The notes under the pieces are model-generated. The model did not search any database and was not told the origin of the DNA. It worked only from the letters and a program-made list of their open reading frames with translations. Made by a program: the position numbers and the translations under genes. From NCBI GenBank assembly GCA_002685855.1, contig NYYS01000018.1, positions 12,859 to 76,858 on the forward strand: a stretch of DNA of 64,000 bases. Reading direction: 5' to 3'. This document shows positions 8,033 to 54,400 of the stretch, piece after piece. This stretch comes from Candidatus Woesearchaeota archaeon. Its GTDB lineage: Archaea > Nanobdellota > Nanobdellia > Woesearchaeales > GCA-2685855. The first letter of the stretch is position 1. The number at the start of each line of letters is the position of its first letter.

Positions 8033-8033
8033 A

Positions 8034-14876: not shown

Positions 14877-14953
14877 TTTTCTTCAGGAAGAATGTGGCCG
14901 TAGTCAATATGAACTCGAGCACTTGCCTGTACACCATGACCTCTAGATTCTTT

Positions 14954-15985: not shown

Positions 15986-16003
15986 TTTTATCCCTCTTTT
16001 TTA

Positions 16004-17215
16004 TCATTCAAGTATTATTCTTTTAACTGTTTTTTCATTATGATGATTTTTGTTCCAATACCAATCACCTTCTTTTGACAAATAGAATCTTTGTCCTGTA
16101 TCCTTTCCCGAGTTGTCGAATACCCTAAACTCTGAGTAAAAATCAGGATCTGAATTATAAGGTAAAGGACCTCCCTTTTTTGATGTATCAGTAAAGGTAT
16201 TATCAAAGCGTTTACTACCTATTAATTCTTTTCCTTCTTTGTAGTTTTCTTCTAAAATATTAAGTTGGTCACTAACACGTGGTGGAAGATTTGATTGTTT
16301 AATGGGATTTATCTTATTTCCGATCATCCCGAACTGGCTCCCATCATCAGCAATTCTGGCACTACTTGCTTCATCCGTACGCTTAAAAAAATCACCAGCT
16401 GCTTCTAAGGCCTCATCGCTATATTCTATTGCTTCATCAGCCAATGCGGCGGCCTCATCAGCATACCTCGCCTTATTCGCAATAGAACCAGGAAGAATGG
16501 CTGTAAGCAGCCAAAACGCGTTCTCAGCAGAAGGCTCTTTAGCAAAAGAATATACATCCCAAGCATCAGAAGCAACCTCCAACAAACCCAAAGCCACAGC
16601 AACAACCGCCCAATTCCCTGTCGGATCAACATACTTCACAGGATTATTTCTTACATAGCTGTACCTGTTCAGCTGTTGTGGGTCGTAGGGATCTGGTAGC
16701 AGGGGATCTGGGGATACGAAGATTCCTGTTTTTGGGTTGTAGTGGCGTGCTTCATAGTACATTAATCCTGAACTGTCTTGTTCTTTTCCTGTGAAGCCGT
16801 AGCGTTCTTCTCCTCCTGTTAATACTGATCCGAAGGGAAGATGTTCTGTTTCTTCTACAACTTCTCCTTCTGCATCCGTAACCACCTGTGGGCTTCCCAG
16901 ATGATCTGTATGAATGTAAAACATTCCGGAATCGTTCTTTTTTGCGACCAAACCTGTTGAATCCCGATAATAGATCATTTCCTCTACTGTTCCATCAGGA
17001 AGAACAACCTTAACATAATCATCAACATAATAGGTAGTAGTATTTGTTCCATCCTTATGGAACTCAATCTTTCTCACCCTCGTACCTGTATGATCATACG
17101 TGTTCTTAACAGTTAATCTATCCCCATCCTCCTCATCATAGCTAAAAGCAGAGGTAAAACTCGTTATGATGAGAAATACTAAGAACAGCGATATGATTCT
17201 ATTTGGCTTCATCAA
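16004..17215 (-). CDS. secreted mini-RHS polymorphic toxin: signal peptide + YD/RHS repeat-associated core + C-terminal barnase-like (N1/T1/Sa family) ribonuclease domain
   Basis: Signal peptide 'MMKPNRIISLFLVFLIITSFTSA'. RHS core 'FYIHTDHLGSPQVVTD...PFGS...YGFTGKEQD...YYEARHYNPKTGIFVSPDP...DPTGNW'. C-terminus 'RFDNTF...GGPLP...YSEFRVFDNSGKDTGQRFYLSKEGDWYWNKNHH' aligns with barnase catalytic Glu/Arg/His. Confidence 0.75.
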   Translation of the reverse strand: MMKPNRIISLFLVFLIITSFTSAFSYDEEDGDRLTVKNTYDHTGTRVRKIEFHKDGTNTTTYYVDDYVKVVLPDGTVEEMIYYRDSTGLVAKKNDSGMFYIHTDHLGSPQVVTDAEGEVVEETEHLPFGSVLTGGEERYGFTGKEQDSSGLMYYEARHYNPKTGIFVSPDPLLPDPYDPQQLNRYSYVRNNPVKYVDPTGNWAVVAVALGLLEVASDAWDVYSFAKEPSAENAFWLLTAILPGSIANKARYADEAAALADEAIEYSDEALEAAGDFFKRTDEASSARIADDGSQFGMIGNKINPIKQSNLPPRVSDQLNILEENYKEGKELIGSKRFDNTFTDTSKKGGPLPYNSDPDFYSEFRVFDNSGKDTGQRFYLSKEGDWYWNKNHHNEKTVKRIILE

Positions 17216-17244
17216 GATCCCCCCTTCACAAAAGGATGTTTCTT

Positions 17245-17259
17245 GAAATATTTAAATAT
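17245..17259. promoter_or_regulatory. 15-bp palindromic site GAAATATTTAAATAT, copy 1 of 2 in the divergent toxin promoter region
   Basis: Identical 15-mer recurs at 17351-17365, ~106 bp away. The core ATATTTAAATAT is self-complementary. Confidence 0.45.
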
Positions 17260-17350
17260 TCTTCCTGGAATTCCGGATATTTTCCGAAGAGAAGGTACAC
17301 ATATTCCTTGTTTACTTTATAAACGGTTTAATGAATCTTCTTTAAGAAGG

Positions 17351-17365
17351 GAAATATTTAAATAT
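17351..17365. promoter_or_regulatory. 15-bp palindromic site GAAATATTTAAATAT, copy 2
   Basis: Exact repeat of the 17245-17259 site, upstream of the 17410 (+) Cys-rich gene. Confidence 0.45.
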
Positions 17366-17409
17366 CTCTGTTCTCAAAATAGCTTATGTTACGTAGGGGT
17401 TAGCTAGTA

Positions 17410-17793
17410 GTGATACTGCTAGGGTTAGTCTCTGGTGTGGGGGCTATGACGTTCAGTGAAGCCTGTGATAGTGGTGTGGAAAGGGCTTGTAGCTATCTTG
17501 AAGTATGTGGTTTTTCTGATTGCGGACCTGATGGATGTATTCCAAAGGAGAAAGAAGCTGTACAAATAGAACCAGTAACAAAACTCCCAAAGAAGATCTT
17601 TGACTATTCTGCTCCAATAAGATGCACCCAGTTCAATGATTGGGTAACTACAGATGTCTCACATACCTTATGTGACAAATACCCCACAAGCTGTGTCCGC
17701 AAAAGCGATCCCAACTACCACTTCGACCAATACTGTACTAAAGAAGGACTTATTCAGCCCATACACCTTCAAAAAGGAGGAATAAATGAATAA
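17410..17793 (+). CDS. small Cys-rich secreted protein
   Basis: N-terminal hydrophobic segment and 10 Cys in 127 aa. Balanced composition (island). Confidence 0.4.
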   Translation: MILLGLVSGVGAMTFSEACDSGVERACSYLEVCGFSDCGPDGCIPKEKEAVQIEPVTKLPKKIFDYSAPIRCTQFNDWVTTDVSHTLCDKYPTSCVRKSDPNYHFDQYCTKEGLIQPIHLQKGGINE

Positions 17794-18436
17794 GCCAACC
17801 CTCATCCTACATTTCCTCTTTTTCACACTTCTCCTACTACCCATAACCTCAGCAGAAACCTGCGTACAAATCATGGGCGTAGAACACTGCTGCGGAGTTG
17901 ACGATGGCGTATGTCCCATGGACTACGAAGATTCATACGGAGTACGAGTCGGATGCGGAGGAGACCCCGACCCGGATTGTTGTGGAGGACAGAATACGAG
18001 ATGGAGAGAATGCGAGAGAGATATTGAGAAGCCAGATGAAAGTGGAATATTCACCTATAATACATGTGTAACATCAACCTATGATTCAGCATGCTGTGAT
18101 CAGCCAACAGATTGCGTCTATGATGGAAACTGTTACGACACAAGTTCAGCTGCAATAGAACTCTATCCCAATGATGGACGAGAGCAATGTTCAGAAGGAC
18201 AATGGTGTCCGGAAGGGTTTAAATATGATCCTGTGCGTTTATTTTGTAAAAAAGCTCAACAAACATGTCATCCTAATCCTCCAGGTGCTTGTAGATATTT
18301 GCCTTTTACAAAGGAGTGGTATGAAACTCCCTCTTGTTTCTTGCCTCAATCGCCGGTCCATGAACAAACATGCTGTTTCGATTTCAGTCTTGGAGGTCAG
18401 GATTTTTACAATTTTAAAAGAGTGAGAATCGAGTAA
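17786..18436 (+). CDS. Cys-rich secreted protein (216 aa)
   Basis: Signal peptide 'LILHFLFFTLLLLPITSA'. More than 25 Cys including CC/CxxC clusters. Overlaps upstream ORF by 8 nt. Confidence 0.5.
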   Translation: MNKPTLILHFLFFTLLLLPITSAETCVQIMGVEHCCGVDDGVCPMDYEDSYGVRVGCGGDPDPDCCGGQNTRWRECERDIEKPDESGIFTYNTCVTSTYDSACCDQPTDCVYDGNCYDTSSAAIELYPNDGREQCSEGQWCPEGFKYDPVRLFCKKAQQTCHPNPPGACRYLPFTKEWYETPSCFLPQSPVHEQTCCFDFSLGGQDFYNFKRVRIE

Positions 18437-18440
18437 AAAT

Positions 18441-19775
18441 TCACTTTAGAATTACTGCCTTTCTTGTTGAAGATTCTTTAATACCCTGAGTTGTCTGCTC
18501 AAACCGAATAAAGTAGACTCCGCTCGAGAGAGTAGATGCATTCCAGCGATAACTATGTTGCCCTGGAGCAAGTTCTCCTTCGAAGATGGAGGTTACTTGT
18601 TGACCTGTAAGGGCATACGCAGAAATACTTCCCTGTCCACCTCTTGAAAGGATTTGGATCTGAGTTGAGGGGTTAAAAGGATTAGGAAAGATATTCTCAA
18701 TACGTGAATGAACTAATGGTGCTGATGGAGGGATTGGATCAGCAATACCCACCTCTGGTTTTTCTGGAAGGCCATAGGTAATTAAAAGAAATTCCCCGTT
18801 TGGAGTTCTGTCCTGGAGCATTCGCGCAAAGACGTCTGCATTCCATAGGCCAGGAAATTGTTTGTTCGGATCCCTATCTGAATAACGTGCAATTTGCGCA
18901 TTTATGTATGGACCAACTTCGTGTCTCTCATCGGAGTTAGTTCTATGTCCTCTCATTTCATGCTCAAATATGAGCTGAGATATGAGTGAATCAGAGGGAT
19001 TTTCTGTATTCCAAAAAACTTCGCATAAAACAGGTTCAATCACGTTCGATGTAGGATGCATTCTCACAATAGGATTTGCTTCATTCGTATAATAAGGGAG
19101 AATGTTCCAGCCGCCAACAGTAACAGAGTCAGGAACAATTTCAATTTCTCGAGGTGCAATTTCTCGAGCATAATCACCAATACAAGCTTCTAATCCTTTA
19201 ATATGGTTCGGATTTGAGATTGAGGGATCTATCCAAACCTGGTAGGCAGTGAGTCCTGCGTCTTCGATAAAACTATTTTTTGGCCAAGGATTATCTCCAT
19301 AATTCATATTTCCATAATGAACTATTCTTTCAGGTTCCCATTGATTGATTTGCCATTCAAGGAATTGATTATACACAACAACCTCCCTTGGCCGTACAGG
19401 CACGATGGTGCTATCCCCGCGGTCAATCCAGCTAGTATCCGGATATTGTACTAAGAGAACAGGTTGCGGTTTGAATATAATATTATTGTCAAATTGTTTG
19501 TAGAAGTTGTCATATCCTTCTGTTTCTACCCATACTGCTCCTCCCTGGTGTTCAGGAAAGCTTACTTCACCATTAGAATCTGTGAATTTGATATCATCGT
19601 TGTAATCAACAGGAACACCAACAACAAATTCACCTGTTGCCACATCCCGTAACACGAAATCTGTAGCTTGGGCATTATGAGGCTGTGCTAACCCTATTCC
19701 CCTGACTGTACCTGCGATTAAAAGACTCTTTGGAACCTTCCGGGACGCCTTCCTAACCATATCACCAAGACTCAT
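18441..19775 (-). CDS. secreted protein with a C-terminal T9SS/Por-type sorting-domain-like beta-sandwich
   Basis: C-terminal ~80 aa 'FPNPFNPSTQIQILS...ISAYALTGQQVTSIF...GQHSYRWNAS...SGVYFIRFEQ' matches the Por C-terminal sorting-domain pattern. N-terminal catalytic-looking region is unassigned. Confidence 0.5.
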   Translation of the reverse strand: MSLGDMVRKASRKVPKSLLIAGTVRGIGLAQPHNAQATDFVLRDVATGEFVVGVPVDYNDDIKFTDSNGEVSFPEHQGGAVWVETEGYDNFYKQFDNNIIFKPQPVLLVQYPDTSWIDRGDSTIVPVRPREVVVYNQFLEWQINQWEPERIVHYGNMNYGDNPWPKNSFIEDAGLTAYQVWIDPSISNPNHIKGLEACIGDYAREIAPREIEIVPDSVTVGGWNILPYYTNEANPIVRMHPTSNVIEPVLCEVFWNTENPSDSLISQLIFEHEMRGHRTNSDERHEVGPYINAQIARYSDRDPNKQFPGLWNADVFARMLQDRTPNGEFLLITYGLPEKPEVGIADPIPPSAPLVHSRIENIFPNPFNPSTQIQILSRGGQGSISAYALTGQQVTSIFEGELAPGQHSYRWNASTLSSGVYFIRFEQTTQGIKESSTRKAVILK

Positions 19776-20005
19776 ACTCTTTGGAATAGGCTTAAATTAT
19801 AAAAACATTTGTGAGAACAGGATTAATAGCTATATAGTCATTAAATCATTCATCTAAAATGACCTCATAAAAATTTTGTTCTTTATATGCAGGAAAACCT
19901 GTTTTTCTCGCTTGAATAACAGTGTCATCCTTGTTTTCTATAAACTGACTAATACTTGCCTGAAACAGAGAGATCGGATGCATCGATGTAATTTCTGCCT
20001 CTTTT

Positions 20006-20536
20006 TTATACTCTGTGAAGTCGGTCTTTTTGTCTGTTAATTTCTTTTTGTAATTCTATGAAGTTCTGTATTCTATAAGTGAAATATCCCATAATCGTAT
20101 CTTTTTTAGCAAAATGTCCGTATTCATGTGCGATTATGGCAAGTAAATCTTTTTCATTTAACATTTGAAGCGTAGCCAATCCGATTATGATTTTTTCCCT
20201 GAATAATCCACTTACAGCAATTTCACTACCTTCTGAAAGAATAATTTTATGCGGTTTTTTCTGTCCTGTTTTCTTGATAATCTTGTTTATAATTCCAGTC
20301 AGTTTTTTGGCGTCCTTTTGTTTTAATTTCATTTCATATCCTTTATCTGATTTTCTAAAAATTCCCAACCAAATACCAACTAAAATTGGCCAACAAAATA
20401 CGATAAACATAAAGTTGTATATATAAATAATTAAACCAATCGCAATGAGAAAGCAAACAATCATGCCAAAACCGAATATTAACATAAAAAAGGAGTATAT
20501 TATTTCAAACCTGTCCGAATTAATCTTAACTTCCAT
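20006..20536 (-). CDS. membrane-anchored HExxH zinc-metalloprotease-like protein, probably truncated (M48/M56-like N-terminal part)
   Basis: Two TM helices then 'IIAHEYGHFAKKD'. ORF ends ~30 aa after the motif, so it lacks the usual third metal ligand region. Confidence 0.4.
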   Translation of the reverse strand: MEVKINSDRFEIIYSFFMLIFGFGMIVCFLIAIGLIIYIYNFMFIVFCWPILVGIWLGIFRKSDKGYEMKLKQKDAKKLTGIINKIIKKTGQKKPHKIILSEGSEIAVSGLFREKIIIGLATLQMLNEKDLLAIIAHEYGHFAKKDTIMGYFTYRIQNFIELQKEINRQKDRLHRV

Positions 20537-25426: not shown

Positions 25427-26184
25427 ATGAGAGGACGCCCCAAAAAACAACTATCTCAACAAACAATTCTCCAAGAACTCCGGGCCTGCGACAACACCCT
25501 TCAAGAACTCCACGTAACCCCAAAACCCCAACAAACCCCCCTCTACCGCGCATACGAAAACCTCGGCACCGAAATCATCCGACACGGCATCGACGCCCTC
25601 GCCCACATCATCTTCTTTGGAGAAACCCTCCACGCAGCAAAAAACGGCACCCCCCTCGAAACAGTCCTCGAAAGATACGAACTCACACCCTCCGCCCCAC
25701 TCGTTATTCCCCTCTCAACCATACAAAAAAGAGGAATCTACATCCCCCAAACCGCCTACACAGACCTCTTCCTCCCCCGCGCTACCTCAGCCACTCCTCA
25801 CAACCCGAACGCTGGATACCCCTCTTCAACAGCGAAGACATAGGAAGAATCCTCTTCACCCCCCAATTCAACGGCCCCCACCCAAACACCGCATTCCAGC
25901 AGGCCCTCCTCGCCCTCTCAACCACGTGGACCGCCAACGACCTCCACCCCCCAGCAAACCGCAACTACGGACTCAACTTTGCCCACAAACTCTGGAACAT
26001 CTGCACCGAACACATCCTCCACCCCTCAAAAACCATCCACCGCGAACAGATCCTCCACTCAAAAAACAACAAAACACCTCCCCAGTTCAGACTCCACGCC
26101 CACGAAGCATACAACAAAACAACACAATTCCTCCGCTACTATTCAACCATCATAGACCCCCTCCTCCCACACAACCCAAAATAA
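25427..26184 (+). pseudogene. hypothetical protein gene with a probable -1 frameshift near 25790-25815
   Basis: Frame-2 ORF (25427-25843) is followed by ~125 stop-free, Met-free codons in the adjacent frame ending TAA 26182-26184, with a protein-like translation. The track's alternative ORF 25617-26252 is Pro/His low-complexity junk. Confidence 0.35.
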
Positions 26185-35886: not shown

Positions 35887-35932
35887 ACACAACTCCCGCA
35901 ACATTTTAATGCACGAATTAATTCCCATCTCT

Positions 35933-36436
35933 ATGCCTCATAACATACTCATAACAGGACTTCCCAAATGCGGAAAAAGCACGCTCCTCGAACTACTTAT
36001 GCAGGAGATAGACCCGCCAAAAAAAGGATTTCTAACAAGAGAAATGAGAGAACAGGGACAACGAACCGGATTCAAGGTCATCCCTTCTGAAGGCCCCAGC
36101 AGAACACTCGCAACCATCCACGCCCCTACACCCATCAAAGTATCCCGTTACTATATTAACATCCCTGAATTCGAAAAAGCCCTTCCTCCATTCAACCACT
36201 ATACAAACGAACTCCTCTACATCGACGAAATAGGATAGATGCAGCTCCACTCAGAAGAATTCCAACACCTCGTAAAAGACTGGCTGGACGCACCAAACAC
36301 CTTCCTTGGAACCATCTCAGCAGTATTTACCCACCCATTAATCACCCATATACGAACAAGAGCAGATACACAGATCTACTCCCTCACACCACAAAACAGA
36401 GAAACAACATACAGAACACTAAGATCCATACTCTGA
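35933..36436 (+). pseudogene. THEP1-like nucleoside-triphosphatase gene interrupted by in-frame TAG (36236-36238)
   Basis: P-loop 'ILITGLPKCGKSTL', '...GFKVIP', 'LYIDEIG' then TAG then 'MQLHSEEFQHLV...THPL'. The TAG sits where THEP1 homologues carry Lys (IDEIGKME), i.e. AAG to TAG. The two track ORFs 35828-36238 and 36239-36436 are contiguous and in frame. Confidence 0.5.
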
Positions 36437-36450
36437 TAATTCTTATCCAT

Positions 36451-36469
36451 ACTTTCTCGTAGAGAAAGT
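36451..36469. repeat. palindrome ACTTTCTCGtaGAGAAAGT (copy of a motif also inside the tRNA-Ile large intron)
   Basis: Near-identical 19-mer 'actttctcgcgagaaagtg' occurs at 44371-44389. Both are perfect 7-8 bp inverted repeats. Confidence 0.4.
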
Positions 36470-36548
36470 TAGGAATGACTTAATGACTATATAGTAAACA
36501 ATTCAAACCCCAACATTCTTTATAAACAAACACCTATTTCAGAAGACC

Positions 36549-37329: not shown

Positions 37330-38043
37330 TCACAACCTCTTTAACAAAGCAACAACATCTGGAGGAAACAGCTTTGCTCTTTCAATGTTATTATTTGTAA
37401 ACCACCTATGCTTCACCCTAAAAAATATTTTATCCGGTGCAAGCCTTCTTCTCCCCATATATTTAAGCGCTTCCCCTTTTTCAAAAAGCCTAATCTCTTC
37501 CCGTTCCATATTCAAACCAAGAACATCATGCGTCATTAAATATTTAAATAAATTTGCAGTGAGCACAGCTTCATGTGTGGATGGTTGCTCATCAGCCATC
37601 AAATCCACTTTTCCTTTTGTTGTTTTAAACCGAATAAAATCACGTCCCCACAAATTGTGGTTCGATTCACTTTCTGAAAACACGACATACTCTCCGTTAC
37701 CATCCTTAACTACATTGTTGGGTATTCTACTAATCTTATCCCAATGTTTCATAAAATACGTAACTAACATTTTTGAAGAAACTTCATAATCCAAATCCCA
37801 ATCAGAAGAATTAATATCCACTCCAAACTTAAGAATCATAGGGAATCCCTTAATATCAAAATATTTTTTATGCCATATAAAGTGTTTAAACGCTTTTTTT
37901 AATGAGCACCAAACATAAAAACCATGTCCCTGACCAAATCCTGAAGCTCGTTTTGTATTAACACCATTTTTAAAGAAATCATAAAGCCTTTCAAAATTTT
38001 CCCCTGTCCAGGATGTATGATATACATCTTTTCTCATCGTCAA
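37330..38043 (-). CDS. hypothetical protein (237 aa), balanced-composition island
   Basis: ORF only. Composition differs from flanking native genes. Confidence 0.4.
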   Translation of the reverse strand: MTMRKDVYHTSWTGENFERLYDFFKNGVNTKRASGFGQGHGFYVWCSLKKAFKHFIWHKKYFDIKGFPMILKFGVDINSSDWDLDYEVSSKMLVTYFMKHWDKISRIPNNVVKDGNGEYVVFSESESNHNLWGRDFIRFKTTKGKVDLMADEQPSTHEAVLTANLFKYLMTHDVLGLNMEREEIRLFEKGEALKYMGRRRLAPDKIFFRVKHRWFTNNNIERAKLFPPDVVALLKRL

Positions 38044-40820: not shown

Positions 40821-42359
40821 CTATCGATACCGAGAAAGATCCGGCCCAACCTCCTCCTGACCCGCCTGCCTTTTCACATCAGCAGCAACCTTCCTGCCAA
40901 GCAACCCCTCCAACCGGGAAAGAGACACACTCTTCACACCTGCAACATCCTTAATACCACTCCGAAACAACTTCCTTGCTCTTACACGACCAATATTCCG
41001 CAACCGCAACAACCCCAAAAGCTCCTCCTTTGCACCATGCCGCAACCGCGTCCGCAACACCTTCAACTCTTTCAGAATATCATGAAACTTCAACAACACA
41101 CACATCTCCTCAGCCGCATACACCAACCAATCCGCAGCATCCAACTTTGCATGAATCTCCCCCGGACGAACATTCAACGCATTCAATAATTCTTCCTCGC
41201 TCTTCTCATTCATCCACTCATCAAAAAAGAAAGCAGTCTTCACACTATTCAAAAAATCCTCATACTCACTACTATGATCCATCGGCACAGAAGTAATAAA
41301 CACCTCCTCATTCAACCCCACAAGCTCCTCCACCCAATCCAACTCCTTAACACGAACACGCAACAACGGCCGCATCTCCAACGTAGAACTCACCATCTGC
41401 AAAAAACTAAATACATTCCTCTTCTTCCCTGTCGCCCGCTTCAAAGCCTCAATAATCAACTGAGCCGTATACGGATCCAAGTACAACTCACTAACCCTCT
41501 TCCCAACCGGCGTAGCAACAAGAGACCCCTCTTCACCCAGATCAGAAGCAGACACAAACCCATCATCCTTTTTTCCACCCTCAACACGAATAAACTCCCA
41601 CTCCTCCAACTGCTCCAACGTCTTTCCAATCAACCAATGAATCTTTTCACTATCCCCATAACTATGCGCATAAAAAGTACGATCAAAAAAATCCTTCAAA
41701 GCAGACTCAGACAAACAATACTCAGTAGCAATCAACGTCAACACATACGTACGAAACACCGGCTCAACCGCCAACTTCGACAAAATCTCCTCCGGCTCAC
41801 CCTCAACATACCGCTCCCGAATCTCCTTCTTCTGCCCATCAGAAACAGCAATCGTAATCGCCTGCCCCTCAGTCTCCTTCCCCGGCCTCCCCGCCCTCCC
41901 AATCTGCTGATGATACTCCAACACAGGAATCGGACTCATCCCCCACCCCCCACTATACCGTTTCAGATCCCTCACCACAACACGAAACGCAGGAAGATCA
42001 ACACCCATCGCCAAACTCGGAGTCGAACAGATAACATGCAAACGAGAATCCCGAAACCCCTCCTCAATCAACCTCCTCTGAGAACTCGTCAACCCTGAAT
42101 GATGAAACGCAATCCCCCGCTCAACACACTTCGCAAGCCGCTTACACTGCCGCGTAGCAGAACCCACCCCCTTCAACACCTTCTCTGAAAGAACAGCCAG
42201 CTCAGACAGAACAGGAAGCTTCAACGCAATCTGCTCCGCCTGCGACTCAGCACCCCTCCGCGTATTACAAAACACCAACGCCTGCCGATCCTGCTGCACA
42301 GTATCCAAAGCAATATTCAAAACCGCATCCGGCGTTGTCTGGGGAATAGGGATCTTCAT
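40821..42359 (-). CDS. Hel308/Ski2-type helicase, C-terminal portion only (RecA2, WH, ratchet, HhH); N-terminal ATPase domain absent
   Basis: Starts at RecA2 ('QALVFCNTRRGAE'). Motif VI 'QQIGRAGRPG'. C-terminal HhH 'LRLRNIGRVRARKL'. Stop codon 12 codons upstream of the ATG in frame; TATA-like box ~35 nt upstream. Confidence 0.7.
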   Translation of the reverse strand: MKIPIPQTTPDAVLNIALDTVQQDRQALVFCNTRRGAESQAEQIALKLPVLSELAVLSEKVLKGVGSATRQCKRLAKCVERGIAFHHSGLTSSQRRLIEEGFRDSRLHVICSTPSLAMGVDLPAFRVVVRDLKRYSGGWGMSPIPVLEYHQQIGRAGRPGKETEGQAITIAVSDGQKKEIRERYVEGEPEEILSKLAVEPVFRTYVLTLIATEYCLSESALKDFFDRTFYAHSYGDSEKIHWLIGKTLEQLEEWEFIRVEGGKKDDGFVSASDLGEEGSLVATPVGKRVSELYLDPYTAQLIIEALKRATGKKRNVFSFLQMVSSTLEMRPLLRVRVKELDWVEELVGLNEEVFITSVPMDHSSEYEDFLNSVKTAFFFDEWMNEKSEEELLNALNVRPGEIHAKLDAADWLVYAAEEMCVLLKFHDILKELKVLRTRLRHGAKEELLGLLRLRNIGRVRARKLFRSGIKDVAGVKSVSLSRLEGLLGRKVAADVKRQAGQEEVGPDLSRYR

Positions 42360-42424
42360 CGTACAAAACGTTTAAAAAAAGAAAGCAGTTCACCTATAAA
42401 AGATTTGGGTCTGCAGTACAGCAA

Positions 42425-42454
42425 CAGGCTCAAGCCCACTATGGGGCTGTAGTG
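42425..42454 (+). repeat. 30-bp direct repeat copy 1 (includes first 12 nt of tRNA-Pro plus 18 nt of its leader)
   Basis: 'caggctcaagcccactatggggctgtagtg' is exactly repeated at 42516-42545. TATAAAAG box at 42395-42402 precedes copy 1. Confidence 0.6.
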
Positions 42455-42515
42455 GGTAGGCACCTTTCGCTCGCGTTGCTTTAAAGGTGCGCGAAATGCG
42501 TGGGTTTCGCCTATG

Positions 42516-42545
42516 CAGGCTCAAGCCCACTATGGGGCTGTAGTG
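42516..42545 (+). repeat. 30-bp direct repeat copy 2 (functional 5' end of tRNA-Pro)
   Basis: Exact copy. Continues into the full tRNA. Confidence 0.6.
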
Positions 42546-42638
42546 TAGTTTGGAAACACCCCTCCTAACAGAGGATGTTGAACACTATCACTGGTGGTTC
42601 GGGGCCGCCCGACCGGAGTTCGAATCTTCGCAGCCCCA
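42534..42638 (+). tRNA. tRNA-Pro: tRNA-Pro(CGG) with a ~32-nt non-canonical intron between D-arm and anticodon stem
   Basis: Acceptor GGGGCTG/CAGCCCC + discriminator A. D-arm GTGT-AGTTTGGAA-ACAC. Anticodon arm GGTGG-TTCGGGG-CCGCC (U33, anticodon CGG, G37). Variable CGAC. T-arm CGGAG-TTCGAAT-CTTCG. Extra 42560-42592 not accommodated by the cloverleaf. Confidence 0.5.
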
Positions 42639-42745
42639 TTTTTTCAATCTCACATATTCCTAATAATAATCTTTGCAGTCGTAGACAGGATCCAGGTCAT
42701 AATAAAACTAAGAAAATAAGAAAAGAAAAAAAGCAGGAGGAAGTT

Positions 42746-44152
42746 CTATTCAGAATCCACAAGCTTTTGAAAAAACCCTTTGAACGTTATCCAGCCATCT
42801 CCTCCAGATTCAATTTCCCCTCTTCCTTCCCAGACAACAGATTCCCAGGTATGCGTTCGAATGAAGAATCCTCCCCAGCCCTTATAGGTGTGGTTACCAA
42901 TATCCTCCCATTCTCCGTGGGTGCTAAAATCGACATCAGCTCCATTTGTCCAGAGAGTTCCTTCACCATCTCTAACCTCGAAATCTCCTGTTCCTGCAAC
43001 TTCTACTCTTCCCTGTCCCCAGTAGTTTACACCTCCGCTTCCTTCCCTTCGAACTCGTGTCCGATCATAAGAGAGGAACGGGTCGTAAACTACTTCAGGA
43101 GAATGTAATCCGGCTATCCTTTCAGCAATCTCTGAAATATTTTCTGTGTTCCAATAATTTTGCCGAGCATCGACTTCATAAGGCTGATCATTCCAGATTC
43201 CAACCGGGGACCAGATGTTGCTATACCTTATCAGGTGTTTTGTTCCTTGTCTTATCTTATCTCCAACAATAGAAATATCCCTTTCCTCATTATCGAAGAA
43301 ATTACTATAAAAGATAGAAACATTTGAGGAATTCTCAATCAGCAACCCTGTATCCACATCGGTTACAGTCAATTCGCCAATGTCTGCCTCAGGCGCATTT
43401 ATTAGTGCAATACCTGTACTATATATCTGGCCATGTTGTATACGAACTTCTTCAATCTCAATATTTGCTTCATCAGACCACTCATCTGAGTATTCTATCC
43501 ATATGCCGTTAATATCAAAAATTGAAATAAGCACATTATACCCTATTTCTACAAAATCAACGTCCTGTGTGAAAATTCCTGTATCATAATTTTTAATTGT
43601 AAGATGATGAATCTCCATGTTATCTGCATCTCTTATATAAACACCCGTCCCATACCACGCTCCAATGCCATTAATAAGGCCATCATAGATACTAACTTCA
43701 TCAACATCATTGGTCTCGACACCATATCTCACATTTTCAATTTCAACTTCTTCAATCAAGAGAGAGTCAGAATCTAAAACGACAATTCCAGAATTCATAT
43801 TTCCCAAAAAACTATTTTCGAAATAAAGATCATCAACATACTGGGCATCGATTCCTTTTGAAAAATCTTTAAGAATACAATCTTCAATTTCAACATCCTC
43901 AGTGTCTCTGATAAAAAAACCCGTACTTTCATTATCTCCAACTAAAACAGTATCTTCACACTCAATTTCAATATCATGATCTCCTGTCACAAAGATCGCT
44001 TCATTAAGCTCATACTCACCACTACAAAAGTTCGTATCTTCTGTTATAGTCATCCCAGAATAGGGCTCAACACAATCTGCTGAAACAGAAGAAGAAAATA
44101 AAACATTCAAAATAAGTATACAAAACATGCCGAAAAAGAGTCTCTTCATCAT
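42746..44152 (-). CDS. secreted right-handed parallel beta-helix repeat protein (pectate-lyase/NosD-like fold)
   Basis: Signal peptide. Repeated 'D.E.I..C.I....GI' beta-helix rungs ('NVEIHHLTIKNYDTGIF', 'DFVEIGYNVLI'). Balanced composition, flanked by two intron-containing tRNAs. Confidence 0.5.
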   Translation of the reverse strand: MMKRLFFGMFCILILNVLFSSSVSADCVEPYSGMTITEDTNFCSGEYELNEAIFVTGDHDIEIECEDTVLVGDNESTGFFIRDTEDVEIEDCILKDFSKGIDAQYVDDLYFENSFLGNMNSGIVVLDSDSLLIEEVEIENVRYGVETNDVDEVSIYDGLINGIGAWYGTGVYIRDADNMEIHHLTIKNYDTGIFTQDVDFVEIGYNVLISIFDINGIWIEYSDEWSDEANIEIEEVRIQHGQIYSTGIALINAPEADIGELTVTDVDTGLLIENSSNVSIFYSNFFDNEERDISIVGDKIRQGTKHLIRYSNIWSPVGIWNDQPYEVDARQNYWNTENISEIAERIAGLHSPEVVYDPFLSYDRTRVRREGSGGVNYWGQGRVEVAGTGDFEVRDGEGTLWTNGADVDFSTHGEWEDIGNHTYKGWGGFFIRTHTWESVVWEGRGEIESGGDGWITFKGFFQKLVDSE

Positions 44153-44242: not shown

Positions 44243-44462
44243 ATGGGCCCGCCGTGACTTTCAGCAATCCCTCGCACAAGGGGCTTGAGCTGCAGGCGAA
44301 ACCCCTGCATCTGTTTGAAAGCAGAGCTCTCAAACATGCCAGAAACCTGAATGGTTTCTAAGCATTTGCCCACTTTCTCGCGAGAAAGTGTTTTGAACAC
44401 GGGACCACTCGATCACCGATGGAATTATCAGTCGAGCACTCCACCAGGCTAAGCTACGGGCC
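44243..44462 (-). tRNA. tRNA-Ile: tRNA-Ile(GAU) containing two introns: a 12-nt intron at canonical 37/38 and a ~134-nt intron in the T-arm (between nt ~60 and 64)
   Basis: Minus-strand read: GGGCCCG-TA-GCTT-AGCCTGGTG-GAGT-G-CTCGA-CTGATA[ATTCCATCGGTG]A-TCGAG-TGGTC-CCGTG-TTCAAAA-CAC[~134 nt]..CACGG-CGGGCCC-A. Perfect 7-bp acceptor, 5-bp anticodon stem, T-loop consensus. Mature length 74 nt. Confidence 0.65.
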
Positions 44463-44711
44463 CATACCGTCCCCTGTCGGACTTCCATACAATCTAACGA
44501 TATTCACGTAGCCTGGAGGACTTCACAAAGTGAATGTCCTCTTGTCTTCTTCTACGAGATCTTCGAAAGATCTCTTTTGAACCGACGACCTTGTGGTCTC
44601 TTCACCCTGTTTTCAGGGGTAACAGCCACACGCTCCACCGCTAAGCTAAGGGGACCTGGTTCCGAGAACTATAATCCTTTTTATAAAGCTTACCAAAAAC
44701 ACTCCTCTTTT

Positions 44712-46176: not shown

Positions 46177-47793
46177 ATGAAAAAAGAGGCCATACTACTT
46201 ATTTCAGTACTTTTAATTCTACCAATAACCTTAGCCGTCGACTGTGCAGATGTTCCTTATCCAGGAGCAGACGGATATCTCAACGAAAGCTATACACTAA
46301 CAGAAAATATTACCGCAAGCTCAAGGGGTCAGGTAAACAGATGTCTTAAGGTAACTGCAGATGATGTAACCCTTGATTGTAATGGATATACAATCGACAG
46401 CAAAAACATCAAACGCTCCAGCTTTTCAAGCATCGGCTATGACAGAATAACCGTCAAAAACTGTAACTTTATCAACTCAATAAGTAATGCTTTTGGCATC
46501 AATGCAGCAGAAGATGCACAAATACTCGACAACACCTTTGCAGATGATGATGCAGGATGGTCTGGTGACGGTGCACTTATTTCAGGAAACACCTTCCGTG
46601 ATCGATTTGGTATTGACGGTGATAATGCTGTAATAGAAAACAATGAATTTATAGTGAACCTGGGTATCGGCCAAGTGGCATTAAACATAGGTGGCTATTC
46701 CACGAATAATCTCATACGTTTCAACACCTTTCGTCAACCCGAACAAATAGGCGCAGGATTAAAACAAGGGCATGCCATCTATACTACCACTAGCGCTCAC
46801 TTTAATAATATTACAAACAACACTATTGAAGGGTTTAACACAGGAATAAATTTCTGGACATTTGCAGGATATACTGAGATCTACCATAACTACTTTGCGA
46901 ATAACTCTGTGAACGATTCCAACTTTGCAGTTCACGGAAACTATGGAGATCTTAACGAAGTTGCTGATAACACCTTTGCAGCAAACACCGTTGGGGTCTA
47001 TTTTGAAGGATCTGTTGACAATGTACTGTGGGGAAACAATTTTCAGTTTCCTGACGTTGTAAACTACTGGGATACAGACAACAACCATTACTGTAGTGGA
47101 GGAATAGAGAACGACTATGAATTTATGGATAATCTCCTGAATATGACCTTAGAAGAGTTTCATTCCTTTGTTATACAAAAAGAAGCAGATCTTTCCCTGC
47201 TCCACCTTGAACTTCCGTTCACCTACGAACTTCTCAACGAAACAAACAACTACTCTGTGAACATTACCTTGCCAGACTGTAATCAGACAAAGGATAATCA
47301 ATCCAACCAAAGCCTGGCGATGAGTGGAGATTTTCTGAAAGAGCTTTCAGACCCTGTCCTTTTTGATCTCGTGGAGCTTCAAAATGGCTTTCTCATGGCT
47401 CTGGATCCTTGGGATGGATTTAAATACTTCTACAATGAAAATGCCTGGAACGGCGATGTTATGGTCCATCAACCAAACGGACAAACAGATTACTGGGTGT
47501 GGGAAGTCCATTCAACACCAAACACCTACCGGGTTTGGGTCTATATTCCTGTTGACCCCATCTATGTCGGAAGCTATGCTAAACAAGCAATGTACTATAT
47601 CAAACATGCAAACGGCATGGACAAAGTAATCCTGGATCAACGCCTGGCAGGAAGTGATTGGGTAAACTTAGGAGACTATACTTTTGATGAATCCAGCTAT
47701 CAGGGTGTCGCCCTAATTGGAGGAAACGGACGAGGACATACCTTGGCAGATGCATTTAGGGCAGAAAGTATTGGGCCGCCACAGTACGATTAG
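46177..47793 (+). CDS. secreted parallel beta-helix repeat protein (538 aa)
   Basis: Signal peptide 'AILLISVLLILPITLA'. Repeated 'N..I.NN.F' beta-helix rungs. Many N-x-S/T sequons. Balanced composition; AT-rich promoter region upstream. Confidence 0.5.
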   Translation: MKKEAILLISVLLILPITLAVDCADVPYPGADGYLNESYTLTENITASSRGQVNRCLKVTADDVTLDCNGYTIDSKNIKRSSFSSIGYDRITVKNCNFINSISNAFGINAAEDAQILDNTFADDDAGWSGDGALISGNTFRDRFGIDGDNAVIENNEFIVNLGIGQVALNIGGYSTNNLIRFNTFRQPEQIGAGLKQGHAIYTTTSAHFNNITNNTIEGFNTGINFWTFAGYTEIYHNYFANNSVNDSNFAVHGNYGDLNEVADNTFAANTVGVYFEGSVDNVLWGNNFQFPDVVNYWDTDNNHYCSGGIENDYEFMDNLLNMTLEEFHSFVIQKEADLSLLHLELPFTYELLNETNNYSVNITLPDCNQTKDNQSNQSLAMSGDFLKELSDPVLFDLVELQNGFLMALDPWDGFKYFYNENAWNGDVMVHQPNGQTDYWVWEVHSTPNTYRVWVYIPVDPIYVGSYAKQAMYYIKHANGMDKVILDQRLAGSDWVNLGDYTFDESSYQGVALIGGNGRGHTLADAFRAESIGPPQYD

Positions 47794-47944: not shown

Positions 47945-48456
47945 GGGGAAAACCAGAGCCAAAGCAAGATCTTTCTAGCCTGAGCGATCTCGAACTCTTC
48001 CAGGAACTCGGAAAAAGACTCGCAGAAAAACACCAAACAGATCCTTCCACTCTTCTCATCCCCACACCCACTCCCCAAAACACCATCCCTCTCCCCATCT
48101 TTACAGGATCCCTTTCTCCCCTAGAAGCCGTTGTCAAATACCTCCACGAAAACCACAAACTCTCATTCACCGCAATCGGAATCAAACTCAACCGCTCGGT
48201 AAAAACAATCTGGCAAGCCTACCAAACAGCAAAAAAGAAGATGCCAGAACCCTTCACACCCTTCAAAGGAGAAACACTCCCCCTCTCAGAACTCTCAAAC
48301 AGAACCTTCTCACTCTACGAAAACCTCGTTCTTTACCTTTCAAAAAAACACCGCCCGAAAGAGATCGCCCTCCTCATCAACAGACCCCAACGAAACATTA
48401 ATACAATCCTTAGCAGAGCACGAAAAAAAGATCAACAAACAAAAACAGAATCATGA
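47932..48456 (+). CDS. small HTH protein with sigma-70 region-4-like helix-turn-helix segments; candidate regulator of the downstream giant gene
   Basis: 'LSFTAIGIKLNRSVKTIWQAYQTAKKKM' and 'EIALLINRPQRNINTILSRARKK' resemble region-4/LuxR-type HTH. Overlaps the start of the 2750-aa ORF by 4 nt. Confidence 0.35.
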   Translation: MQKNRGKPEPKQDLSSLSDLELFQELGKRLAEKHQTDPSTLLIPTPTPQNTIPLPIFTGSLSPLEAVVKYLHENHKLSFTAIGIKLNRSVKTIWQAYQTAKKKMPEPFTPFKGETLPLSELSNRTFSLYENLVLYLSKKHRPKEIALLINRPQRNINTILSRARKKDQQTKTES

Positions 48457-51400
48457 ATAAAAAACAAAAAGCAAAACAAATACCCTCAGAAGGGAAATTA
48501 CTCCTACTAGTCCTATTCATACTTACAACTACACTTATCTACTACATCCAGCCAGCCTTCATCGCATTCATCATCTACGACGAAACCAGCATCACACTTC
48601 AACTCAACCAAACAATAACAGAAGATACATTCCTGCCTCTCGAAATCGGAAAAGTAGACTCCATCCATATCAAAGGCCATCTTATAGGAAACGGAACCGC
48701 AACCATAAAACTCGACCAACCAGGAAAAAACCTTCTCATCTATGAGAAAACAGGCTCTAAAGTAAATCCCCTCATCCCCAACGATCCACCCTCCGACTCA
48801 CCCCTTCAAACAACAATAACCTACGGAAACAACCCAAACTTCGACACAGACAACAACGGATGGGAACTCACCACTAATGCAATCGACTACACCGTAGAAA
48901 CAACCAACACCCAAAAATACAACCAAAGCACACTCTGCACTCGCTGGGCACTTAACAACCAATACATAGAATGCAACGGAAATGCAATGTGCTGCCTCTT
49001 CACAGGCATTGAACAAAGAACAGAACAATGGAACGCCCCTTTCAGCCTTCACGACCAACTCCTTGGAGTAAAACAAGCAAACCTCATCACAGCACAACTC
49101 ATCTCAACAACAATCAACTACACCAACATCACAACACAACCCGGATCAACACAATCCCTTCCAGGGTATTTCATCGACAACACTCTCCAATCGCCAATCG
49201 ACCACTGCGGAGAAACCTGCACCTTTGAAGGAACCCAGGATCCCCGTCTAAAAATAGAACTCCACAACGCAGTCCTTTACATCGACACAATCACCTACAC
49301 CCCCTACTCCGAAAACAAACCACCCACACTCCAAAAAAGCACCCACAAACTCTACTCCGGAGCAACACTCAAATTCACAGAACTCTTCCACGATCCAGAT
49401 AAAGACAATCTCACAATAACAATCACAAACACAACAAACCTCACACTAACAAAAACCCACCAAGGATATAAAATAGAAGGAAAAAAAGGAAACTACACCC
49501 TTGAAATAGAAGCCAAAGACCACCGCTACACAATAACAGAAAAGATAAACCTCACCCTCAAGGATTTCAACCTGGAAACCCTCCTCAACAAAAACAAAAA
49601 AGAAAAAACTGATGAAAAACCCTCTGTAAAGATAACCGGCCCCGCCGAAATCAAAGGAATCTACAAACACCCTCAAAAACAAAGCCCCTTCAAAGGAATA
49701 CAATTCGGCGCATTCATCCAAGAAGGAGATGTAGAAATAGGAATAAAAAATAAAGGCCTGCTCCTCCTCAAAGATGCAAACTACGCCGGCCTTGAAGAAA
49801 TACAGGTCAGAACACCCCCAAGCAGAAGATATGCCACAGACATCATCGCAGTAAACGACATCCAACTCAAAGAAGCAGTCTTTGTACTCCCCAAACAATC
49901 ACCAATAACCCAAATACAACACTGCCCCAACTGGAACTTTGAAGAACAAAGCTGTCCAAAATGGGAAGATGCAGGAGTGGCATTTGCACAAAACCAAACC
50001 CATGTCTGGTGGGTAGCAGACCACTTCTCAGGATGGGTAGGACTCAGCTACGGCTTTGACGATTTCGAATATGATGACGATAATAACTATTGTACAGACA
50101 CACCATCTCTTGAAAACTGGATGACAGTTTCCTGTGAAGCAAATGCGGGCTCGTTCAACCTCACAACAGACAACTGCTACTTAGGATCCTCCTGTGGAAA
50201 TGTAACCAACACAGACTCACAAGATGCTGCAAACGATGTAACAATAGTCTACAACTCCAATCTCTCTTCAGCAGAGATCGTCGACCAAAGAGTCTACTTC
50301 AAAGAGGACTGTGCAAACCCCCTCTCCGGAGGAAACGGAGATACCTACATAATGGGATTAACAAGAGGATCAGGAGCAGCAGTTGCCAGAATGGGCTTCA
50401 ATAGTGAAGGCCTTCTTGGTTGCCAACGAAGAAATATGTCAGACAGCCTAGCAAACTGCGCAGGACAAACAGCACAAAACCTCACCTGTGGACGATGGTA
50501 CTATCTCGAAATCCATTACGACACAAGAGTAAACAACCTTACCTGCTATGTCAACGGAACACCCTTCTGCTCAGAAGAAGGAGTAGTCATATTCAGAGAC
50601 AACGTAACAATAGAGGCCATAGGAATCCTCCCAACTTCAGACTACCAAAACAACGAAACATTCTTCCTCGACGAATACCACACCGCCGACAAATACCTTG
50701 GAGGCTACCCTTGGGTAGAAGATCTCAACCACACAACCAGATTCGTCACACCCGGCACCGACCTAACAATAAACGCAACAATCTACGACAACGATGTCAT
50801 CAACGGAACCCTCGGCACCGTGCTACTAGAAGGAAACTGGAGCGGAGTAATGACCAACTATACCCCCACAAGTTCAGGATCCAAATACTTCTACAAAGTC
50901 GGACGAGGAAACTTCTCAAGCAACGACTCAGTAGGCTACCGCTGGTATGCAAACGACACCATCAACCAACAATACTACTCCCCCCTGCAAATAATCACAA
51001 TAGAAAACAGATTCATCCTTGACACAGATCAAAATAACCTCACAGATCTCTTTCTCAGCAGCCTTCTTCTCGCAGACGTAGACAACGACTCAGACCTCGA
51101 CCTCTATCTCTCAGGAGCAACAGCAATACCTGGCGGAAACGTATTTTCCGGACTCTACCTCAACAACGGATCTGGACTCTTCACAGACACACTTCAAGCC
51201 AACTTCATTGCACTCAGAGAAGGATCATCCACCTTTGGCGATACAAACAATGATGGACTCCCCGACCTCATAATCTCAGGATTAAATAGCGGATCAAGAT
51301 ACACAAGAGGCTATATCAACAATCTATCAAATCCAGGAACATTCTACAACGACACCTCATCGAGTTACAATCCTCTTTCCCTTAGCAGTTTTGCACTTGC

Positions 51401-54400
51401 AGATTATGATGCAGACGGAGACTATGATCTCATCGCAACAGGACTTTTTGCAGCCGGAGAAGGAGCAGGAATTAACACATTTACAGATGGTGTATCAGCT
51501 CTTGATACAACCCATATCAACAACTTCACAAACGTATCCCGTCCAGCACTTCTATTAGCAGATATAGATAGTGATGGAGACCTTGACATCTTCATGACAG
51601 GACAAACAGAAGCCACCCCCCTCTACACAGGAATCTACCTCAACAACGGCTCAGGAAGATACATACAAGACCAATCACAGGCAAACCTCCTCGCAATCTT
51701 TAATGGAGCAGCAGTAGCAGCAGACATAGATGCAGATGGAGACATCGACATCATCATCGCAGGAGACTCAAACGAAACAACCACAAAAAACTACACAATG
51801 GAGGTCCTCCTCAACGACGGAAATGGAAACTTCTCAATAGACAGTCAACAAGACAACCTCACCGGACTCGATTTTGCTTCACTCGCAGTAGGAGATATCG
51901 ACCTCGACGGAACAATAGACATCTTTGCAATGGGAAACACCTCAAATGGACCTGCTGCATTCACCTATCTCAACAACGGATCCGGCTACTTCAAAGAAGA
52001 CGAATCATTCTCAGCAATGCCCCTTCATTACGGAAGCGCAGCCCTTGCAGATATTGATAACGACGACGACCTTGATCTTATCATCTCAGGAACAAACAAC
52101 ACCTATCGTAACTACACTCTTGTCTACAAAAACCAGATCAACAGAAACATGACCAACCGCCCCCCTGTAGCTCCCACAGGCATCGACTGGAACAGATCCG
52201 GAAGCAACGGCAAACTCGAACTAAACTGGTCCATAGGAACAGACAATGCAACAGGAGCAAACGCAGTCACACCTGACAACGCAATAACCTATCACCTCAG
52301 TCTCGGAACAACTCCCGGCGCATCAGACATCATGAGCAGATCCTATGGAGGATTCTCCAACCCGAGCAACGGCCACCTTGGAAACAGACTCCAATCAAGA
52401 AACCTCTCACTCTACCTCGAAGGAACCTACTATGCTACCATCCAATCAATAGACGCACAAGGAAAACTCTCCGACGACAACCTAACATTACTAACTAATC
52501 AACCACCAACACATTCAGCCCCCATACTCAACACCTCCCCCCTCAACAACAACCGAACAAGTGAAAACTTTACCTGCTACAACCAAACAACCTACGACTT
52601 CGACAACGACACAATCGTAAACGCCTACAAGTTCTACAGAAACAGCACTTCAGCAGTCATCGTGCAAGCAAGCTTTGAGGACAACAGCACAACCATTGAA
52701 AACTTCCCACCGCTCACAGAATCAGGAACAAACTATACAAACGGCTACCAAGGAAGAGGAATCTACATAGATGACAACGACCAACTCAACTATAGTGCAA
52801 CCTCCCTTCTTACAGCTGAAGAGGCCACGATCGAGCTCTGGACACGCTTCGACTGGGACCCCGGAGCAACCGGAGACACAAACCACACACTTATATCCTT
52901 CGGAAACCAATCAAGCTATCAGAATACAGGAATACTTTTCTACAACGACGTATACAATCTCCTCGCCCTTACCCTATTTGGTGAAACAGGATCTCCTCGT
53001 ACAGTAAGCTACGGAATAAGCGATATCAACCCAAACGAATGGCACCACATACTCGTATCATGGGACTACAACAACGGAACAGGAATAGAGATGGAACTCT
53101 ACCTTGATGGAGCTCTCGTAGACAACACTCCCTCTTCCCAAACAGCCCTTACTGTGAATTCAGGAGGAACAGGAGGAGACGGTGTCTTCATAGGGAGATA
53201 CAACGACATAGCCTATGCAAACGCAACAATTGACGAACTCTACATCTGGAACGTTCAGATGGGCCTTGAAAAAGCAGTCCAAAGCAATGCAACAAACTAC
53301 GGCTTTGTTCCATCTGGATCAACCAACAAAAACGAAACCTGGACCTGCGAAGTAACACCTCAGGACAGATACACAAGAGGCCTCCCATCAAACTCCAGCC
53401 AGATCCTAATGCTCTCACAACTACAAGTTGATCTAAACGACCCAGACAACGGAACAACAAACCAGCTTTTCACAAACGTATCCTACAATTGCAGTGCAGA
53501 ATCCTCTTCAGTTTTATCAAATATAACCCTCTATCCTGACTTCGAAGGATGGCAACAGAACGGAACAACCACCACCTCAGGACTCAACAACTCCATAAAC
53601 ATAACAAGATCCTACGAAGGATTAATCACAGGAGATAAACAACGCTTTACAGACGGAAGAATTCTCTGGAACTGTAGAGTAAATGATTCATCAGGAGAAT
53701 CAGCCATAGCAACAACAAATTCCACATTCAGCAACTGGGACCTCGGAAACCACTCCAACACTTCCCTCATCAACAACCGCCTCAGTCTCATAAAAAACAC
53801 CTCAAACGAATATGAAAACCTAACAGGAACATTCGACAGCAGAGTCTTCGATGGCGGTGTAGGAGCCTACTGGGATAACTTTTCATGGAAACCTCTCACA
53901 CCCTATGGTGTTGGCCTCTTCAACACCACAAACATACTCTATCACTTTGACAACTCTTCAGATCTGCAAGAAGACAACGGAACCTATACCGATGCAACAC
54001 TCCAGGGCACCAACTGCTCATCAAGCGGAACATCGGTTCCACTATTAGACACAGAAAAGATCTTCGGAACATTTGCAGTCGATTTCGACGGAACAGACGA
54101 CTATATCTCCTGTAATGACACAACTTTATTAAACCTTTCAGGAATATACTCGATCTCGTTCTGGATCAGAACCAATGCAACAAACGTTCCCATATTCGCA
54201 AAAAATGATTATGCAGGAACTCCTGCAGGTTTCCAATTCCAAATAACCTCAAACGGCACAGCAGCATTCAAGGCAACACGATCAGGAACAACAATGTACC
54301 TAGAAGGAACAACAAACATATCCGATGACAGATGGCACCACATCTCAACAAGACACATACAACTTGTCATGCCCGGACCATCATTATCACAGAACATATC

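Follow-up and report, generated by a model that had tools for sequence, protein, structure and literature searches.

The locus described here lies in a 64-kb window, the whole stretch of DNA that was analysed, on a contig of an uncultured marine "Candidatus Woesearchaeota archaeon". An ATG at 35933-35935 opens an ORF (MPHNILITGLPKCGKS...) that extends for 101 codons, ends with the residues ...LLYIDEIG and is closed by an in-frame amber codon (Table 1). The codons around this stop read CTC TAC ATC GAC GAA ATA GGA TAG ATG CAG. The second of the two ATG codons, at 36239, directly abuts the TAG with zero spacing, and from it the same frame remains open for 65 codons (MQLHSEEFQHLV...RSIL) until TGA TAA is reached. 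The start of the upstream ORF agrees with the N termini of homologues (e.g. MPNNILITG). NCBI lists the two pieces under separate locus tags (CMO92_01545 and CMO92_01550), and the Tara and JGI assemblies likewise annotate the downstream piece as a gene.

A TTTAAA/TTTATA-like box lies 26-33 nt upstream of the ATG in many first genes of the window, and these genes lack an SD sequence, which suggests that first genes are transcribed as leaderless mRNAs. Since TTTTAAT occupies positions -29 to -23 relative to the NTPase start codon, as in these first genes, the NTPase transcript is probably leaderless as well and would start at 35933. Genes internal to operons are instead preceded by GGTG, GAGG or GGAGG at -8 to -14, and ATGA overlaps are frequent. 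The small hairpin that follows the locus has a folding energy of -11.9 kcal/mol and z = -1.5, which is a weak signal.

Table 1. Features of the interrupted NTPase gene and tRNA genes in the window (position 1 is the first nucleotide of the window).
Feature	Position	Strand	Remarks
TATA-like box TTTTAAT	35904..35910	+	23-29 nt upstream of the NTPase start codon; putative promoter element
N-terminal THEP1/NTPCR-type NTPase fragment, 101 codons	35933..36235	+	PF03266 1-105; MAE13224.1
Walker A, GLPKCGKS	35957-35980	+	in the N-terminal fragment
Walker B with catalytic Glu, LLYIDE	36212-36229	+	in the N-terminal fragment
In-frame amber TAG	36236..36238	+	column is Gln in closest relatives, Lys in classical THEP1
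C-terminal fragment, 65 codons, starting at the family-invariant Met	36239..36433	+	PF03266 107-164; MAE13225.1
Tandem terminators TGA TAA	36434..36439	+	natural gene end, from sequence
Small hairpin, core CTTTCTC-GTA-GAGAAAG	36446..36474	+	possible transcript end (putative role)
tRNA Thr(GGU) or Val(AAC)	42533-42639	+	28-29 nt intron
tRNA-Ile(GAU)	44246-44462	-	12-nt anticodon-loop intron and T-arm intron of about 132 nt
Asn-like (GUU) tRNA	about 44480-44650	-	T-arm intron of about 92-95 nt

When the two pieces are compared singly with Pfam, the N-terminal fragment matches NTPase_1 (PF03266) over profile positions 1-105 (E = 1.6e-17, 64.3 bits) and the C-terminal fragment matches positions 107-164 (E = 1.4e-07, 31.9 bits), both above the curated cut-off of 23.9 bits. 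The joined sequence spans positions 1-164 of 168 (E = 1.8e-32, 112.9 bits). Because the two matches end at 105 and resume at 107, the stop takes the place of exactly one column, without an insertion or deletion. The arrangement of two pieces around the TAG is not a product of chance.

An AlphaFold2 model of the joined protein (mean pLDDT 94.8) superposes by Foldseek on PDB entry 1YE8 (TM 0.88, rmsd 2.0 A, E = 1.5e-11) and on 2I3B (TM 0.83), with all further matches at TM 0.44 or lower. These entries are the solved members of the THEP1/NTPCR family, aq_1292 of Aquifex aeolicus and the human cancer-related NTPase, respectively. Sequence and modelled fold alike assign the interrupted gene to this family (PF03266, COG1618). 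The joined protein shares with the solved members Walker A, Walker B with its catalytic Glu, a variant of the RecA-like fold and a length of ~167 residues, and G14, K15, D98 and E99 are invariant in the homologue alignment. Unlike the family members, in which a single uninterrupted frame encodes the whole domain, the frame here is broken by the TAG three residues past the catalytic Glu. This Walker B Glu has been defined for the family, which belongs to the ASCE class of P-loop NTPases and whose cellular function is unknown (PMC1079890). The original prediction of a THEP1-family NTPase gene cut by one in-frame TAG is therefore confirmed by the profile match and the fold superposition, and the sequence and the PDB alignments agree with it. 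Its proposal that the downstream piece is the THEP1 C terminus is likewise borne out, since the Pfam match at 107-164, a leave-one-out HMM score (see below) and the fold all agree.

In the AlphaFold model the TAG corresponds to residue 102, which lies in the loop just after the Walker B strand (residues 94-100). The C-terminal fragment contributes two core strands and three helices, and the break falls inside one compact domain rather than at a domain boundary. As the missing part supplies these core elements, the N-terminal fragment alone is predicted by the model to be probably inactive.

The TAG had been placed at a conserved lysine, with a change from AAG to TAG, and this part of the original prediction is not supported. 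Alignments to 1YE8 and 2I3B do align the TAG column with the K of DEIGKMEL. However, among the 14 closest database proteins (37-47% identity) the column holds Q nine times, G twice, and E, R and K once each. In the 68 of 73 GTDB-representative loci where the motif is readable, the counts are about 30 Q, 27 K, 4 P, 3 E, 2 R, 1 H and 1 G. The residue follows subfamily: loci of the Q type share the LLYIDEIG-x-M(Q/E) context of the window gene, which belongs to a DPANN/CPR-type subfamily with the pattern LLYIDEIG-Q-M(Q/E), whereas classical THEP1 proteins have hh(I/V)(I/V)DEIGKME. Lysine at this column is thus conserved only in distant relatives, the classical THEP1 proteins. The two nearest relatives, a Woesearchaeota locus (L003, 54% identity) and a database protein (P0017, 53%), both have Gln here, and the Gln codons of relatives at this column are CAA or CAG. 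Because the column is mostly Gln in this subfamily and is Gln in both nearest relatives, the ancestral codon is likelier to have been CAG, converted to TAG by a C-to-T transition, than AAG, and this route is also the more parsimonious. An ancestral Gln in place of Lys removes the main attraction of reading the TAG as pyrrolysine.

Relatives show that the interruption is peculiar to this genome. No stop occurs at the TAG column in any of the 73 GTDB-representative relatives (all 68 readable columns are uninterrupted). An exhaustive phmmer search with the N-terminal fragment against 1.84 billion representative proteins gave 1,223 matches, and among the best 150 of these none ends in ...DEIG; the short matches among them are contig-end truncations at other positions. 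Judged from these comparisons, the TAG split is a one-off, lineage-specific event. The GTDB scan contained no genome closer than 54% identity, and six archaeal relatives, five of them labelled Woesearchaeota, share no synteny with the window within +/-3 kb of the gene.

The same TAG is present in JGI contig Ga0211538_1048491 and in ENA/Tara contig CEPV01209852.1. Both contigs, like a third JGI contig, match the window at 100% identity over 4.5 kb, without a single mismatch. A metagenome pattern scan that allowed any codon at the site returned one ENA/Tara contig, again identical and with TAG. Look-ups with the C-terminal fragment and both neighbouring genes returned only one JGI sample, with 100% identity throughout, and an exact look-up of the N-terminal fragment protein for contigs found no record. 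The per-sample assemblies (the JGI Ga0211538 contigs and CEPV01209852.1) both break inside 36120-36176, a stretch of 56 bp within the N-terminal fragment that is bridged only by the MAG co-assembly. The break most likely reflects a gap in coverage, or local heterogeneity, in a single read set that both share. Because both assemblies break at the same place, the three assemblies that carry the TAG probably share reads and are not independent.

These observations bear on whether the TAG could have arisen as a sequencing or consensus artefact, or whether the assemblers picked up a minority variant. The organism is rare, the per-sample contigs are only 1-2 kb long, and their common break suggests low coverage and the same read set, all of which would favour such an origin. 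Against it, three pipelines report an identical base without a mismatch over the whole compared length, and a second in-frame stop elsewhere in the window suggests real lesions rather than a one-off error. Moreover, Illumina substitution errors rarely survive into a consensus. An error-prone consensus is an unlikely cause of the TAG, and we give an artefact or a captured minority variant only a slim chance.

The sequence downstream of the stop is in good condition. The C-terminal fragment keeps every residue that is invariant in the homologue alignment, and a single nearly invariant column is changed, conservatively, from Tyr to Trp. No further stop or indel is present in the 65 codons. When an HMM was built from all other homologues (leave-one-out) and the N- and C-terminal parts were scored apart, they gave 115.9 and 58.5 bits. 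The resulting C/N ratio of 0.50 equals the median of 61 intact homologues (range 0.33 to 0.60). The gene thus combines the disabling lesion expected of a pseudogene, a premature stop at residue 102 of about 167, with a downstream part that shows no relaxed constraint. It follows that either the lesion is very recent or the C-terminal piece is still under selection. As far as sequence can tell, the undecayed fragment would be compatible with a pseudogene only if the event is very recent.

The main rival explanation is a functionally split gene. A nonsense mutation would by chance have arisen directly upstream of the family-invariant Met codon, ribosomes that terminate at the TAG would reinitiate at the abutting ATG, and the 101- and 65-residue pieces would assemble non-covalently into an active NTPase. 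Reinitiation is plausible because the stop abuts, with no spacing, the codon of the family-invariant Met, and because ATGA stop/start overlaps and 1-nt gaps are common between operon genes, where coupled translation is normal. The break lies in the loop after the Walker B strand, the C-terminal fragment has not decayed, and three pipelines call both pieces as complete ORFs. Split protein genes are also a known feature of Nanoarchaeota and other DPANN (Nanoarchaeum equitans), which counts in favour of such a reading, and the present case resembles them in its DPANN host and in the conversion of one ancestral gene into two intact ORFs.

In other respects the locus departs from that model. Known DPANN split genes are usually broken between domains, their parts often lie apart in the genome, and relatives share the split. 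Here, in contrast, a single stop lies inside one compact domain, the pieces are adjacent and in frame, and the same split occurs in none of the 73 loci and none of the best 150 of the 1,223 database matches. The expression signals do not fit well either: the sole SD-like element is AGGA, whose end is 3 nt away from the ATG and thus nearer than the -8 to -14 of other internal genes, and the interval from -26 to -33 of ATG 36239 lacks a TATA-like box. On balance, we consider a functional split gene unlikely.

Gene ends throughout the window indicate that TAG is an ordinary terminator in this Woesearchaeon. In a greedy set of 62 ORFs, the terminators are TAA (27), TGA (19) and TAG (16), and in four conserved genes the terminal TAG lies at the end of the Pfam profile or a few residues away from it. 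These genes encode an E2 acyltransferase (profile position 231 of 232 at residue 404 of 408), E1-beta (124 of 124 at residue 312 of 322), a CorC/CNNM protein (79 of 81 at residue 409 of 410) and a thioredoxin (100 of 103 at residue 84 of 88). TGA is clearly an ordinary stop here as well, given the many ATGA overlaps. When all pairs of open segments of at least 50 codons parted by a single stop were listed for the whole window, no other conserved gene with an in-frame TAG was found, and the THEP1 gene is the only case supported by homology. The other pairs of segments separated by a single TAG were rejected as antisense shadows or as neighbouring genes that share a frame by chance.

This pattern weighs heavily against recoding of UAG, whether as pyrrolysine, through reassignment of TAG to Gln, or by a dedicated suppressor tRNA. 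Pyrrolysine decoding of UAG occurs in Methanosarcinales, Methanomassiliicoccales and some other archaea and bacteria, and TAG-to-Gln codes occur in some phages and eukaryotes. Like the former, the locus presents an archaeal gene with an in-frame UAG where some family members (classical THEP1) have Lys; like the latter, it has TAG where the nearest homologues have Gln. The intact downstream frame also fits. In contrast, pyrrolysine decoding would be expected to place UAG at a conserved, required position and to leave TAG depleted as a terminator, whereas this column is variable, close relatives have Gln, and 16 of 62 ORFs end in TAG. The THEP1 gene is also unrelated to the methylamine methyltransferases. 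Likewise, TAG-to-Gln genomes have many in-frame TAGs and avoid TAG as a terminator, whereas the window has one homology-supported in-frame TAG against 16 TAG terminators. Genes on the minus strand keep intact frames even though their coding strand is under strong C-to-T pressure, the expected source of CAG-to-TAG changes, and no relative carries TAG at the site. A literature search found no paper linking Woesearchaeota to recoding.

A search for decoding components gave a similar result. Default ARAGORN found no tRNA in the 64-kb window, and Rfam at gathering thresholds found nothing in it. Both missed three intron-containing tRNA genes (Table 1), none of which has the anticodon CUA. The fact that such genes escape default detection makes a suppressor tRNA elsewhere in the genome conceivable. 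No credible tRNA-CUA was found in the window by default, lowered-threshold, intron-aware or brute-force searches, and it contains no pylT-like tRNA. Lowered-threshold ARAGORN made ten extra calls beyond the tRNA at 42533-42639. One of these, "tRNA-Pyl(cta)", appears at the lowered threshold only, is antisense within a 2750-codon ORF, would need a 193-nt intron and has poor arms, and was rejected; the other nine were dismissed as spurious on their position and intron length only. No Pyl genes were present among the ORFs scanned against Pfam, roughly half of those in the window. Taken with the use of TAG as a frequent, verified terminator, these findings make recoding extremely improbable.

A 30-nt exact direct repeat, caggctcaagcccactatggggctgtagtg, is located at 42427-42456 and 42517-42546. 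The repeat spans the leader and the 5' acceptor/D-arm start of the tRNA, and a different GC-rich sequence follows the first copy, which could be a second tRNA-like gene or a tRNA half with the same 5' end. The 2750-codon ORF is a single frame at 48453-56705 (+) that begins with a hydrophobic N-terminal segment and adjoins small genes on either side through ATGA-type overlaps. It presumably encodes a giant surface protein.

The original prediction had also raised read-through or leaky termination. A near-cognate tRNA (Gln, Lys or Tyr) could read UAG at a low level and so provide enough full-length enzyme, and because the site accepts a wide range of residues (Q, K, E, R, P, H and G across the family), the nonsense allele would then be nearly neutral. 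The location of the site in a loop and the intact downstream part are consistent with this idea. However, the 110 nt after the TAG contain no RNA structure beyond that of shuffled sequence (z = +0.55). There is thus no sign of a stimulatory structure, and a PYLIS/SECIS-like element was rejected on the same ground. None of the 16 TAG terminators is followed by a second stop within three codons, and back-up stops overall occur in 5 of 57 genes versus about 8 expected from composition, so that generalised leaky termination is rejected. Conserved genes are cleanly ended by TAG, nothing sets the THEP1 TAG apart from these terminators, and no suppressor tRNA was found in the window. We therefore regard read-through at this one site as very unlikely.

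The window had been described as having three of ~60 genes disrupted. In addition to the THEP1 gene, a second case is credible from sequence. The ORF at 9485-10603 contains a TGA at 10190-10192 inside a Cys-rich domain (...KGWCECEKG*YECDGDWDNGCEAEEEC..., with YECDGDWDNGC... after the stop). The 137 codons that follow have strong coding periodicity (G at codon positions 1/2/3 = 0.39/0.23/0.09) and contain no in-frame ATG, GTG or TTG, so that this segment is readable only as a continuation of the upstream frame. The TGA probably derives from TGG, a G-to-A change in the favoured direction on this strand, and the same gene may be cut once more by a TAA at 10604-10606, ahead of MFGLYRD.... The gene has no homologue and no Pfam match. 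The third case, a frameshifted gene at 25427-26182, gained no such support. Here a 138-codon ORF ends in TAG at 25841 and W/F/Y-rich, protein-like sequence continues in another frame to 26182, and neither a Pfam family nor a homologue was found for it. Separately, a Hel308/Ski2-type helicase gene at 40821-42359 (-) starts at Helicase_C (the second RecA domain), followed by archaeal helicase domain 4. There is no DEAD/RecA1 domain upstream, where a 386-nt spacer (42360-42745) holds a tRNA gene. Either this gene is truncated, or it is split and its first half lies elsewhere. Disruption of a few percent of genes is not out of the ordinary.

Mutation in this genome is strongly biased by strand. 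The + strand composition over positions 1-64000 is A.34, C.29, T.23 and G.15, and GC skew is -0.3 to -0.56 in most 2-kb windows. Four-fold sites, in + strand terms, have A 0.40-0.45, C 0.38-0.39, G 0.04-0.05 and T 0.13-0.16 in both gene orientations, and those of NMD3 reach G 0.00 and T 0.02. Such a composition resembles that of the light strand of vertebrate mitochondria. This points to heavy deamination of the - strand, both C-to-U and A-to-I, for which asymmetric or strand-displacement replication may be responsible. A literature search on extreme GC skew in DPANN returned nothing relevant. Islands of much weaker skew at 6183-8903, 14469-20536, 37330-38037, 42746-44152 and 46177-47793 have T-rich four-fold sites (T.23-.48, C.12-.25), in contrast to the remainder of the window, where A and C dominate. 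Several of them encode secreted or cell-surface-like proteins, and they may have been recently acquired or recently inverted.

Having weighed these alternatives, we consider it reasonably likely that the TAG is a recent single-base nonsense mutation in a THEP1/NTPCR gene, which would now be a young pseudogene or an allele that has lost its function. The stop, its place in the family profile, the intact part downstream, the ordinary use of TAG as a terminator and the lack of this stop in relatives are observed, whereas we infer which codon was ancestral, how recent the event is and that function was lost. In the proposed sequence of events, CAG (Gln) would most likely have mutated to TAG in the Woesearchaeal copy of this gene (COG1618). 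A leaderless mRNA would then be translated from 35933 and terminated at 36236, yielding a 101-residue fragment that carries Walker A and B and lacks the two core beta-strands and three helices. The event would be recent, because only one lesion is present and the 65 codons beyond it resemble the family as closely as the corresponding part of intact homologues does. The gene would be either a very young pseudogene or a loss-of-function allele at high frequency in a low-diversity population.

Several observations sit less easily with a simple nonsense mutation. A C-to-T change on the + strand opposes the mutation bias (four-fold sites on this strand have 4% G and 13% T), and a neutral TAG should therefore be short-lived. 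The undecayed C-terminal fragment and the ATG next to the stop would fit a functional gene in two pieces equally well. Furthermore, the TGA at 10190, a second in-frame stop with an undecayed downstream segment, is a hint that some of these lesions could be more than simple losses. It is conceivable, although we judge it rather doubtful, that the amber codon is not a dead end. The NTPase might be made in two pieces by reinitiation, be rescued by read-through, or carry one of several tolerated stops of which the TGA at 10190 is another; in this last case, the genome could be one under extreme, mitochondrion-like strand-specific mutation pressure.

The interruption is genuine but of an ordinary kind, an amber nonsense codon at a variable loop position. 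Metagenome-assembled genomes routinely contain a lone nonsense mutation in some non-essential gene whose function is unknown, and such a finding carries little weight alone. The THEP1 gene should be annotated as disrupted or split and not as evidence of a new genetic code. Its main use is as a negative result, in that TAG and TGA are ordinary stops in this Woesearchaeon, and it corrects the "conserved lysine" premise that made pyrrolysine tempting. The strand asymmetry, which leaves four-fold sites nearly free of G and T on one strand, is more remarkable than the TAG and merits separate study. Should the two-piece form prove functional, it would represent natural intradomain fragment complementation in a P-loop NTPase.
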